From an archaeon (GTDB lineage Archaea > B1Sed10-29 > JAJSAI01), in contig JAJSAI010000008.1 in NCBI GenBank assembly GCA_024274695.1, forward strand, positions 1 through 10,812: DNA of 10,812 nucleotides, in the 5' to 3' direction. Under the pieces are notes generated by a model that had not been told where the DNA came from, made no database searches, and saw nothing but the letters and a program-made list of their open reading frames with translations. Below are positions 1,021 to 5,155 of the stretch, one piece after another. A program made the translations under genes and the position numbers. Each line of letters opens with the position of its first letter. Positions within the stretch are counted from its first letter, which is position 1.

Positions 1021-2136
1021 ATGTTCGGAATGCTCAGGAAGAAGATAAAAACGTTCTTCAAGAAGGAAGAGGAAAAGATAGAAGAGAAACTGGAGCAGGC
1101 CCCGGAAGAAGAGGCTGTAGAGGAACCCGCAGGCCCGGAGCAGATTGTCCAGGAAGAGCCTGAGAAAAAAACGCAACCCTCTGCTGGTAAGAGGCCTGCC
1201 GGGAAAAAGGCTGAAAAGAAGACCAGGAAGGAGAAGGACTCAGAAAAGGAGAAGAAGGTCAGACTCGCCGCGCGGGTGAAAAAGAGGATAGCGCGCAGGA
1301 TAAGGATAAAAGAAGAGGACATCGCGCCCCTGCTGGAAGACTTCGAGCTGGAACTTCTTGAGGCTGACGTGGCCCTGGAGACCGCAGAGGAGATCGTGAA
1401 AAAGCTCAGGGAAAAGCTGGTTGGCAAGGAGATAACATCCAAGGAAACGATATCCGGGACTGTTGAGAAAGCGCTGAGGGAAACCCTGCTGGAAATACTT
1501 CCTGCTCCTGACAAGGTCAAACTGGAGGGAGGCAAGCCGTTCGTTATAATGGTCGTGGGCCCCAACGGGCACGGGAAGACCACGACCATCGTGAAGCTGG
1601 CGAAGAAACTGCAGGACAAGGGCAAGAAGGTGGTCATAGCAGCCGCGGACACGTTCAGGGCGGCCAGCATAGAACAACTCGAGACCCTGGCCGGGAGGAT
1701 AGGCGTTAGAGTGATAAAGCACGATTACGGCGCAGACCCTGCGGCAGTATGCTATGACGCGATAGCCCACGCCAAGGCAAGAGGCCTTGACTACGTGATA
1801 CTGGACACCGCAGGCCGGTCAGAACTTAACAAGAACCTGATGGAAGAGCTCAGGAAAATAGAAAGGGTCGCGAAACCGGACCTGAAAGTGTACGTTGGAG
1901 AATCCCTGGCAGGAAACGCCGCGGTGGAGGAAGCCAAGAACTTTGACAAGGCAGTGGACTTTGACGGCATAATAATGACAAAAGCAGACTGCGACGTGAA
2001 GGGAGGGAGCATAATATCAGTGGCCCACGCCACCGGAAAGCCTGTGCTCTGGCTAGGGGTGGGCCAGGGCCTGGACGACCTGGAAGAGTTCACTCCAGAA
2101 AAACTTGTTGACAGGATACTGGGTGAAGACGATTGA
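1021..2136 (+). CDS. ftsY: Signal recognition particle receptor FtsY
   Basis: N-terminal amphipathic MFGMLRKKIKTFF and a charged linker, then LLEADVA, GPNGHGKTTT (G1), DTFRAA, DPAAV, DTAGR (G3), TKAD (G4) and GVGQ...DL. No M domain. Confidence 0.97.
   Translation: MFGMLRKKIKTFFKKEEEKIEEKLEQAPEEEAVEEPAGPEQIVQEEPEKKTQPSAGKRPAGKKAEKKTRKEKDSEKEKKVRLAARVKKRIARRIRIKEEDIAPLLEDFELELLEADVALETAEEIVKKLREKLVGKEITSKETISGTVEKALRETLLEILPAPDKVKLEGGKPFVIMVVGPNGHGKTTTIVKLAKKLQDKGKKVVIAAADTFRAASIEQLETLAGRIGVRVIKHDYGADPAAVCYDAIAHAKARGLDYVILDTAGRSELNKNLMEELRKIERVAKPDLKVYVGESLAGNAAVEEAKNFDKAVDFDGIIMTKADCDVKGGSIISVAHATGKPVLWLGVGQGLDDLEEFTPEKLVDRILGEDD
2121..2126 (+). promoter_or_regulatory. Shine-Dalgarno-like GGGTGA for srp54
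   Basis: Ends 6 nt before TTG 2133, which overlaps the ftsY stop (TTGA). Confidence 0.45.
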
Positions 2137-3455
2137 TAAACAAGATGAGGGAAATCCTGTCCAGGATAACCAGGGCAGGAGTGCTTGACAAGAAACAAGT
2201 AGAAGAGATAGTCAGGGACATTCAGAGGACCCTGATAACAGCAGACGTTAACGTAAAACTTGTTAAAGAAGTTTCAGAAAGAATAAAAAAGAGGGCCCTG
2301 GAGGAGAAGCTCCCTGCTGGGGTGAGCAGGAGAGAGCACCTGATAAGAATAATCTACGACGAGCTCGTGGGAATACTCGGAGGAGAAAAATACTCTCCGA
2401 GGATGGAAAGACACAAGATTCTCCTGGTCGGCCTTTTCGGTTCAGGAAAAACCACCATGGTGGGGAAGCTCGCGAGGTACTATCTTAAGAGGGGAATGAG
2501 CGTTGCGGCGATAACCACGGACACATGGAGGCCCGCGGCCTACGAGCAGCTCCAGCAGATCGGGCAAGCAGTAGGCTTCCCTGTCCTGGGAGGAAAAGGA
2601 GAAGACGCGGTCAAGATCCTGGAAGAGAGCCTGAAAAAGCACAAGGGACAGGACATTCTCATAGTAGACTCCGCGGGCCGGGACAGCCTCAGCGACGATC
2701 TCATACGAGAAATAAAAGAAATAAAAGAGATACTGCAGCCTGACGAGGTCTTTCTCGTGATCTCCGCGGACATAGGCCAGACCGCTTCAAAACAAGCACA
2801 GGCATTCAACGACGCTGTCGGGCTCACGGGAGTCATCGTGACAAAAACAGACTCCAGCGGCAGGGCCGGAGGAGCCCTGTCAGCATGCCGGCAGGCAGGA
2901 GTCCCGGTAGCGTTCATAAGCACGGGAGAAAAACCAGAAGACTTTGAGGTGTTCAACGCCGAAAAGTTCGTGAGCCGCCTCCTCGGTTTCCCTGACCTCG
3001 GGGAACTGCTTAAGAAAGTTCAGGAAGCCGTTGAAGAGTCGGAATTCTCGCCGGAGGACCTGTTAAAACAGGAGTACAACCTGCGCACGTTCTACAAGCA
3101 GCTTGAGGCAATGAAAAAAATGGGGCCCCTGAAAAAAGTCCTTGAAATGCTCGGGGCAGCCAGCGTTCCCAAGGAAATGGTGGAAGAGAGTGAGGAAAAA
3201 CTGCGGACGTTCAAGGTAATAATGGACAGCATGACCAAAGAAGAACTAGAACACCCCGAGATAATCAAGAGCAGCAGGATAAAAAGAATAGCAAGAGGCT
3301 CTGGCAAGAGCGAGAAAGAAGTCAGGGAACTGCTCAAGCAGTACGAGATGAGCAAGAAAATGATCAAGAAAATAAAGAAAGGCAAGTTCAGAGGAATCCC
3401 TGGAATGAAGGGCCTGAAAGGAATTCCTGGAATGCCCCCGGGGATGATGAAATAG
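2133..3455 (+). CDS. srp54: Signal recognition particle protein SRP54 (Ffh); TTG start at 2133, alternative in-frame ATG at 2145
   Basis: NG domain (ADVNVKLV, GLFGSGKTT, DTWRPAAYEQL, DSAGR, TKTD, TGEK, FVSRLLG) plus M domain (KKMGPLKKVLEMLG, IMDSMTKEE, SRIKRIARGSG) and a Gly/Met-rich tail. Confidence 0.97.
   Translation: MINKMREILSRITRAGVLDKKQVEEIVRDIQRTLITADVNVKLVKEVSERIKKRALEEKLPAGVSRREHLIRIIYDELVGILGGEKYSPRMERHKILLVGLFGSGKTTMVGKLARYYLKRGMSVAAITTDTWRPAAYEQLQQIGQAVGFPVLGGKGEDAVKILEESLKKHKGQDILIVDSAGRDSLSDDLIREIKEIKEILQPDEVFLVISADIGQTASKQAQAFNDAVGLTGVIVTKTDSSGRAGGALSACRQAGVPVAFISTGEKPEDFEVFNAEKFVSRLLGFPDLGELLKKVQEAVEESEFSPEDLLKQEYNLRTFYKQLEAMKKMGPLKKVLEMLGAASVPKEMVEESEEKLRTFKVIMDSMTKEELEHPEIIKSSRIKRIARGSGKSEKEVRELLKQYEMSKKMIKKIKKGKFRGIPGMKGLKGIPGMPPGMMK
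3392..3434 (+). repeat. Short direct repeat in the srp54 3' end (GIPGM x2)
   Basis: AGGAATCCCTGGAATG (3392-3407) and AGGAATTCCTGGAATG (3419-3434) are 15/16 identical, with a 27-nt period. Confidence 0.75.
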
Positions 3456-3475: not shown

Positions 3476-3484
3476 TTTTTATAT
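3476..3484 (+). promoter_or_regulatory. Putative archaeal TATA box for the orphan locus, probably a leaderless or near-leaderless transcript
   Basis: TTTTTATAT in an intergenic gap. The TTTATA core ends at 3483, about 25 nt before ATG 3509, and there is no SD in between. Confidence 0.6.
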
Positions 3485-3508: not shown

Positions 3509-4600
3509 ATGAATCCTGAAGAAATGAAGAAGGCTAGGGAAAGGCTTGAAAAGCTCAGGGGAATGCTGAAGATCGTTAACACCCTCCCAGGAGGCAGGGC
3601 ACTCCGCCACCTGGATGAAATAAGAAGGGCTAGGAGGGCCAGGCTCAGACGAGAGCAGAAGGCAGCAGAGGATCTTGCAAGCGAAGAAGAAAGGACCAGG
3701 GCAGAAAGAATAGCAGAGGGCCTGGAAGCAGCATCAGAACTGCTCAAGAACGCCGTGGAAAGAGGGGAACTGAGGCATGCTGAAGAACTCCTGGACAAGA
3801 TGAAAATGCTTTCAGAGTTCCTGAAAGAAGAGCCCGAGCAGATCCGCAACCCTCTTGTCCTCCGAGAGCTGAGGGAAGCCTCAGAGCACCTGAGCATGCT
3901 TCCGGAAATGATCCCGCAGGAACTGGTTGAAGAAGAGGCCAGAAGAGCAGGAGTGCCGGAAAAAGTCAGCGTGAAAAGAGACCTACTAGAGCACGGGGGC
4001 CCGAGGCAGTGGACTACAATCCCGTGGCCTCTCCCCAGTCATACCTTGTCTCCACGAAGGGCGTGAAACCGTTCAGCCGCATGGAACTCCGCACAGAACT
4101 GGGCAAAGGAGCCGAACCTGAGACCGGCACGCTCTACTACTCTCCTGACAGCGTGCTCGCGCACGAGGCCCAGCACGCCAAGAACTACCGGGTCAATAGA
4201 ACAGAAGCCGGGCGTGGAAACGCTTGACGAGTACCTTGCTTTCCTGGCCATGGCGTGGAAGAACGAGTTCGACGCCAGGAGAGCGTGGGCCCTTCATTCA
4301 GGGTTTCCCGGAAGCCCCCACGAGACCGGCGCAAGGCTCGCGGTCGTGTCCAAGGAACTCGGCCTCAGGCCGGAGGACGTGCTCAAGGCGAAAAGAAGGG
4401 GAGAGTCTGACGAAGAATTCCAGGAAAGAGTTCTCAAGATCATGCGCAGGGCAGAACAGGAGTACAAGGCCCTCAGGAAGGATTACGAGCAGAGGAAGAA
4501 GAGCGCGAGGGGCCCGGGAGAAAAGCAGAGGCTGGAGCTCGAGTTCAGGCAAAGGCTTCGGGAGTACGGGCAAAAGGTCAGGAGAAGATTGGAAGAGTGA
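3509..4600 (+). pseudogene. Doubly frameshifted gene for a ~363-aa putative zinc metallopeptidase-like (HExxH...E) protein with charged helical termini; either pseudogene, recoded gene or sequencing error
   Basis: ORFs 3509-4066 (frame 2), 4009-4227 (frame 1, open from 3931) and 4214-4600 (frame 2, open from 4067) overlap. VLAHEAQH lies in frame 1 and LDEYLA follows shortly in frame 2. The span is 1092 nt = 364 codons, with one upstream TATA box. Confidence 0.6.
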
Positions 4601-4611
4601 CAGGTCCAGCG

Positions 4612-4619
4612 TTTTTATA
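4612..4619 (+). promoter_or_regulatory. Putative archaeal TATA box for the trmY-pus10-peptidase unit
   Basis: TTTTTATA ending at 4619, about 24 nt before ATG 4643, with no SD. Confidence 0.6.
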
Positions 4620-4642
4620 CGCGGTGGGCGTAATGTTTTCTC

Positions 4643-5155
4643 ATGAGGACTTTCGTGCTCGTGCTAGAAAAAGACCTTCCGGGCAGCATAAACTTGAACA
4701 ACCTTTCGGAGCACAGGATTGACGTCTTGTGCAGGGTCATGACAAGCGCGTTCTATCTTGACAACGACTTCAGGAGGGACGTGAAGCTAATAATAAAAGC
4801 GAACAACGTGGTGCTGGAGCTTGACGGAAGCAGGCTGAAGGGAGTAAGGCCGGACGAGAGAACGAACGCGGGAATACTCAGGAAGGTGCTGTCAGGAGGA
4901 AGCCAGCCTGGGATAAGAGCACTGCCTGAGTACGTGATACCAGAGCACGCGTTCTGGCTTGACATGGCAGGAGAATACTACAAGGACAAAGACCCTGGCC
5001 AGGACCCAGTGTTCGTGGTAGGCGGAGAAAAGGGAATGACCGTCCCGGAGAACGCTAATAAAATAAGCCTGGGTAAAAAGAGTTACCTTGCCAGCCACTG
5101 CGTGACCATACTCAACCACTGGATGGACGTGAGGGAATGGAGTACAAGAAAGTGA
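4643..5155 (+). CDS. trmY: tRNA (pseudouridine54-N1)-methyltransferase TrmY, SPOUT family
   Basis: Motifs RIDVLCR...SAFYL...RRDV, PDER, FVVG, and C-terminal ISLG..SYLASHCVTILNHWMD. Overlaps pus10, which makes its substrate. Confidence 0.9.
   Translation: MRTFVLVLEKDLPGSINLNNLSEHRIDVLCRVMTSAFYLDNDFRRDVKLIIKANNVVLELDGSRLKGVRPDERTNAGILRKVLSGGSQPGIRALPEYVIPEHAFWLDMAGEYYKDKDPGQDPVFVVGGEKGMTVPENANKISLGKKSYLASHCVTILNHWMDVREWSTRK

Follow-up and report, generated by a model that had tools for sequence, protein, structure and literature searches.

Frameshift recoding of a cellular archaeal gene has been proven for one gene, fucA1, as far as the excerpts of two reports go (PMC8037382, PMC8211752), and a real second case would matter. 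fucA1 encodes the alpha-L-fucosidase of Saccharolobus solfataricus. In the excerpts of PMC1616953 and PMC8211752, it is described as an archaeal gene that lies in two frames, has full-length relatives, and bears a heptamer at the junction. The site is a canonical A-rich slippery sequence with flanking rare codons, a putative stem-loop is present, and the full-length product was shown experimentally. For slippery heptamers of the form X XXY YYZ, the excerpt of PMC8211752 gives the rule that Y is usually A or U and that Z is not G. The same excerpt also covers interrupted archaeal coding sequences, in which small indels at short runs split a gene into adjacent ORFs in different frames while a close relative remains intact. 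The gene described here resembles these interrupted sequences, but it differs in that two shifts of opposite sign lie 200 nt apart and the last third is back in the original frame.

We analyzed a window of 10,812 bases, which constitutes the entire contig C2 of its genome (G000). Pfam families were matched by 9 of the 10 ORFs scanned in the window, the exception being a 185-aa ORF that is the N-terminal piece of the gene under study. The neighbors with a Pfam match encode eIF6, prefoldin, an FtsY-like GTPase, the SRP54 GTPase, a Methyltrn_RNA_2 methyltransferase, Pus10, an A24 peptidase, an MgtC/DUF4010 protein, and PcrB. This gene is located between SRP54 (2133–3455) and the methyltransferase gene (4643–5155). 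The original prediction had placed at 3509–4600 a single gene that reads in frame 2, then 1, then 2, and when the ORFs were re-read, both the coordinates and the order of frames held exactly.

On the forward strand of 3509–4600, frame 2 gives way to frame 1 at about 3997–4194, the segment with the HEAQH motif, and frame 2 then resumes. The first piece (3509–3999, frame 2) comprises 163 homologous codons and corresponds to a helical, coiled-coil-like N-terminal part; from ATG 3509 the frame continues past this piece to TGA 4064–4066, forming the 185-aa ORF. The second piece (3997–4194, frame 1) has 66 codons, for which β strands and the HEAQH helix (...SPDSVLAHEAQHAKNY...) are predicted. In translation, frame 1 gives ...PEAVDYNPVASPQ...SPDSVLAHEAQHAKNYRV... 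up to TGA 4225–4227, and the earliest start codon of this frame is GTG 4009, which defines a 72-aa ORF. The third piece (4196–4600, frame 2) has 134 codons, reads IEQKPGVETLDEYLAFLAMAW... from 4196, and stops at TGA 4598–4600; it contains the LDEYLAFL block, whose Glu is the candidate third zinc ligand, followed by a helical C-terminal part. Together, the three pieces amount to 363 codons (163 + 66 + 134). A public protein collection holds the first piece as P0002 (180 aa) and the third as P0003 (128 aa, from GTG 4214), and both records come from the window's own 10,812-base contig.

A TATA-like box, TTTTTATAT, was read directly from the forward strand at 3476–3484, ∼29 nt upstream of ATG 3509, and represents a putative promoter. 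The sister genome described below (G001) has a comparable T-rich/TATA-like stretch ∼30 nt before the ATG of its own copy, and we take both to be archaeal promoter boxes. A second TATA-like T/A-rich box occurs on the forward strand at 4611–4621, ∼27–30 nt upstream of the methyltransferase ATG at 4643. The arrangement of the boxes at 3476–3484 and 4611–4621 suggests separate promoters and short-leader or leaderless transcripts.

The N-terminal ORF was searched against 41 genomes, namely the window's own genome and 40 relatives (16 of the same order, 13 of the same class, 10 of the same domain, and G001, the sole other genome of the genus among those searched). Two of the 41 genomes were matched, the window's own and that of the sister species, with none of the 39 more distant relatives giving a match to this query. 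The match in the sister genome (E = 2.1e-24) lies within a stop-free open frame. The orthologue there is a 326-aa ORF in a single frame, in the order SRP54, gene, methyltransferase, Pus10, as in the window. The middle, frame-1 piece is identical to this ORF at 39 of 88 positions (E = 1e-18), and the C-terminal piece (P0003) matches it with E = 1.6e-17. In succession, the three pieces cover the sister ORF from end to end with identities of 44, 48, and 43%, the first extending over residues 1 to ∼150, and judged from these alignments, the match of each piece far exceeds chance. The sister form of the gene is also present in two metagenome contigs and one ENA protein at 99–100% identity; these three additional records are open wherever they cover the gene, which P0001 and L004 do completely and L005 for residues 139–326 only. 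The whole contig (1–10,812) is syntenic with contig C12 of the sister genome (L018), in which the neighboring orthologues are 59–88% identical as compared with 43–48% for the pieces of the HExxH gene.

Because the three pieces tile an intact ORF at the same locus, they are one gene carrying a −1 and a +1 shift. The comparison of reading frames in related genomes, which the original prediction had put forward as a check, was thus run on the only relative found, in which one frame of 326 codons is open. The intact orthologue also established the central claim of that prediction, a single gene of ∼363 codons with the HExxH middle segment out of frame between a −1 and a +1 shift.

The same alignment places the two shifts. 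The first (−1, forward strand) lies at 3995–4002 in a G5C3 run, GGGGGCCC, which is one base short of the reading that matches the sister ORF; adding one base within this run makes the translation colinear with the orthologue codon for codon. The second (+1, forward strand) lies within 4189–4225, with 4195 as the best guess, a position favored by an Ile-Glu match following Val. This region encodes the loop that links the HExxH helix to LDEYLAFL; the loop is poorly conserved and spans 28 nt in the window versus 24 nt in the sister gene. The return to the original frame is without functional consequence, because TGA 4064 ends the first ORF.

The original prediction had raised the possibility of a protease gated by recoding. 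Such programmed recoding would combine a −1 shift on G GGC CCG (3997–4003) with a +1 shift near 4195–4225 and would deliver the full-length protease at a low, regulated yield. We consider it highly unlikely. In its favor, G GGC CCG is the only zero-frame X XXY YYZ heptamer in the 3925–4066 overlap, it lies exactly at the junction defined by homology, and the protein made after a slip there would be colinear with that of the sister species. However, its Y is C and its Z is G, against the usual rule given in the excerpt of PMC8211752, and an indel hot spot in a homopolymer accounts for the heptamer equally well, as the loss of one base in a G/C run creates such a pattern.

The criterion for a stimulatory RNA at a −1 site was a structure 5–9 nt downstream. 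The RNA of 3990–4110 folds at −34.5 kcal/mol, as compared with a mean of −39.98 kcal/mol for shuffled sequences (z = +1.52), and 192 of 200 shuffles were at least as stable. The RNA after the second site was not unusually stable either (z = −1.39; 17 of 200 shuffles at least as stable), and no Rfam family was matched in the window, which we counted against recoding. A +1 site calls for a P-site codon able to re-pair in +1 beside a stop or slow codon; at the second site, no frame-1 codon in 4186–4225 (UAC CGG GUC AAU AGA ... GCU UGA) can do so, the GCU ahead of the UGA included, and two rare events in series would leave a negligible yield. The interruption is also absent from the only relative found. 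An intact sister gene alone does not refute recoding, however, because fucA1, the only proven archaeal case in the excerpt of PMC8211752, likewise has full-length uninterrupted relatives.

Set beside fucA1, the window gene has G GGC CCG in place of a typical slippery site, lacks a stable downstream RNA, and would need a second, +1 shift for which there is no signal. Together with the single frame of the sister gene, these differences leave the idea of a recoding-gated protease unsupported, and the evidence on the window gene speaks against a second archaeal case.

A much more probable explanation, though one that we hold only tentatively, is an error of assembly or sequencing. The true gene would then be intact at ∼363 codons, and the contig would be one base short in the G5C3 run and have one base too many within 4189–4225. 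The genome (825,026 bases in 32 contigs, 91% complete) is an assembly of the metagenome type, and the G5C3 homopolymer pair at the first site is a classic spot for length miscalls. The three pieces are stop-free and equally similar to the sister ORF, as if nothing were broken, and the promoter-like box is retained. Against an error at the first site, the genome contains 841 G/C runs of length 5, and its genes are generally unbroken by G5 runs. The second site lies outside any long homopolymer and differs from the sister gene by 4 nt rather than by 1.

As a proxy for assembly accuracy, we scanned the genome by ungapped tblastn against 697,458 bases of the sister genome for co-linear matches that change frame. 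The scan needs a recognizable sister orthologue on either side of a shift, so shifts in poorly conserved genes are missed. Among 793 best-frame ORFs of the sister genome with a match, the scan returned 14 candidate rows, of which three were accepted: two belong to the HExxH gene and one to an ELP3-like gene. Six rows (C23, C4, two in C21, C29, and C32) were dropped as 5′ extensions of ORFs or non-coding frames; in the two C21 rows, C29, and C32, the likely start comes only after the first HSP. The remaining five rows, all in C7, were also dropped, four being inside the rRNA operon at C7:5527–10220 and one ∼16–21 nt upstream of it. The SSU and LSU rRNA genes in this operon (L047, 1028–5721) are adjacent on the same strand, ∼195 nt apart. 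In the reverse direction, the scan gave six raw candidate rows in the sister genome among 825 ORFs. This ungapped scan replaced a gapped version, which was too noisy, with 65 and 104 raw rows that stemmed from ORFs in alternative frames, and which had missed the HExxH gene, its middle piece being bridged in the wrong frame.

The ELP3-like radical-SAM gene (assigned by Pfam) lies on the minus strand at about 14,462–14,522 of contig C10 (L048) and is split into frames of 300 and 253 codons. The split falls at an A run that is one base too short, and the gene is 78–84% identical to an intact ORF of the sister genome; the split may be genuine or may stem from a miscalled homopolymer. As the only other clear frameshift detected is a one-base shortfall in a highly conserved gene that is expected to be kept, it lends weight to error at the HExxH gene as well, and it hints at occasional homopolymer errors in the assembly. 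On the other side, the genome contains 101 uninterrupted ORFs of at least 500 aa, totaling 74,539 codons (224 kb), the longest of 2570 codons, and the assembly is generally accurate. At a rate of three accepted events in 793 comparable ORFs, and with the long ORFs unbroken over 224 kb, two errors 200 nt apart are improbable unless local coverage is poor.

We slightly prefer to read the two indels as real and the gene as recently inactivated, with no special decoding, a reading to which we give somewhat less than an even chance. The locus at 3509–4600 is the orthologue of the intact sister gene, which evolves fast and was found in this Micrarchaeota genus only, and its product would be a cytoplasmic protein that is helical in its N- and C-terminal parts and has a small HExxH domain between them. 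In the window's genome, one base would have been lost from the G5C3 run at 3995–4002, and the stretch 4189–4225 would have gained one base or, measured against the sister gene, 4 nt. Translation from ATG 3509 would then end at TGA 4064 and yield only the 185-aa N-terminal product, and no single chain would contain the HExxH segment together with the C-terminal part. The locus would be a young pseudogene or a disabled allele picked up by the population consensus.

We infer real lesions, as opposed to errors, because two independent errors within 200 nt are improbable at the low frameshift rate of the assembly and because relaxed selection on a dispensable, weakly constrained gene is expected to give several lesions. 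The second site also looks likelier to be an evolutionary indel than a base-calling slip, because its length differs from that of the sister gene by 4 nt. Conservation of the gene is indeed low: its pieces are 43–48% identical to the sister ORF, whereas the median for 519 orthologue pairs of the two genomes is 70.7%, with 9% of the pairs at or below 46% identity, and the gene is in the lowest tenth for conservation. All three pieces are devoid of in-frame stops, and the middle piece, at 48% identity as against 44 and 43% for its flanks, is no more diverged than they are; any decay must therefore be very recent.

We also weighed a gene split into three pieces, which we regard as very unlikely. 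ORFs 3509–4066 (185 aa), GTG 4009–4227 (72 aa, with HExxH), and GTG 4214–4600 (128 aa, with LDEYLAFL) would be translated separately, perhaps with coupled translation of the overlapping ORFs, and would assemble into an enzyme. The first start codons sit just within the homologous segments, GTG 4009 ∼4 codons in and GTG 4214 6 codons in, at places where the sister gene has no start codon. A rough estimate of the chance of both placements was 0.06–0.1, however, and Val is commonly encoded by GTG here; the placement of GTG 4009 and GTG 4214 is probably due to chance. The 14-nt overlap of the second and third ORFs is compatible with coupled translation, but the first overlap is long at 58 nt, and no convincing ribosome-binding motif was present at the usual distance from either GTG. 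Split genes do occur in DPANN archaea, which favors this arrangement. A small catalytic domain is nevertheless unlikely to tolerate a break between its HExxH helix and the helix that follows, and gene callers report only the 180- and 128-aa pieces and not the 72-aa ORF. Taking both special routes together, low-level −1 slippage on G GGC CCG combined with a further shift or translation of each of the three ORFs by itself, it is improbable that the gene still yields an active HExxH enzyme. Most likely, the locus reflects a commonplace gene disruption or an assembly error and not a specially decoded protease.

What the intact protein does was considered next to the gluzincins, in which HExxH is combined with a Glu on the following helix, as in thermolysin and the M1 aminopeptidases. 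The best-conserved blocks of the two orthologues are SP[DE]SVLAHE[AI]QHAKNY and LDEYLAFL. The HExxH motif, HEAQH in the frame-1 piece of the window and HEIQH in the sister protein, falls within a predicted helix (low model confidence), and the conserved Glu of LDEYLAFL follows the second His by 18 residues in the window and 17 in the sister species, starting the next predicted helix. The predicted secondary structure, taken from low-confidence models, begins with a long helical N-terminal part and continues with three short strands, the helix bearing HExxH, the LDEY helix, and more helices. Like the gluzincins, the protein thus carries HExxH in its best-conserved block, a Glu 17 or 18 residues further on, and a predicted strand-strand-strand-helix(HExxH)-helix order, and in these models, the domain would look like a small gluzincin-like domain. 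It differs from them in matching no curated peptidase model and, with poor models, no structure.

Profile searches returned little. For the middle piece, Peptidase_M91 came closest among the Pfam families (E = 0.076), but its 13.8 bits are below the cut-off of 25 and the match covers only 27 residues around HExxH, and the intact sister ORF matched no Pfam peptidase family even at E ≤ 10. Searches of NCBIfam and PHROGs gave nothing relevant at E ≤ 10, and the top match of a PDB sequence profile search was an unrelated viral polymerase subunit (E = 0.066). The AlphaFold model of the full protein had a pLDDT of 61.1, falling below 50 over residues 134–220, the catalytic part, and that of the domain had a pLDDT of 51.0. 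Foldseek gave no PDB match at E ≤ 0.001 for either model, and at these pLDDT values, the models are too poor for the negative to count. Neighbors in a protein atlas scored 0.85–0.91 and shared 91–135 of 256 features; as leads only, those at 0.85–0.90 include the small HExxH families M78, Tox-MPTase4, SprT-like/Zn_peptidase_2, LPD23, and DUF3920. Of the zinc-metallopeptidase call in the original prediction, the motif part stood, with HExxH and the LDEYLAFL Glu conserved in both orthologues, whereas no significant match in Pfam, NCBIfam, PHROGs, or the PDB profiles accompanied it. From the conserved HExxH and LDEYLAFL blocks, we put the assignment to a zincin-like metallopeptidase at about an even chance.

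The family is found only in this Micrarchaeota genus in the data searched, as judged by sequence similarity. With the sister ORF as query, a word-indexed search of 5.8 billion proteins returned a single protein, the sister form itself (99% identity). An exhaustive HMMER search of 1.84 billion representatives with the full-length ORF returned four proteins, the sister form, P0002, P0003, and P0004, and no further relatives. P0004 (E = 8e-5) was judged to be a repeat-amplified chance match; it is a protein of 1515 aa with ∼16 near-identical repeats of ∼95 residues, six stretches of which match residues 233–291 of the sister ORF. Contig scans confirmed two metagenome loci among the 600 pattern matches listed and one genome locus among 97, all of the sister form. 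A second assembly of the window's species appeared neither in the protein collection nor in the contig scans, from which records of its own genome were possibly left out.

A frame-gated metalloprotease, or one split into three pieces, in a DPANN archaeon is what the locus would represent if either form of special decoding were true. As it stands, the finding is a routine matter of annotation, in that the three ORFs are one disrupted gene. What the locus adds for the lineage is a genus-restricted, unannotated HExxH protein family situated in a conserved Micrarchaeota housekeeping cluster of SRP54 and tRNA-modification genes.
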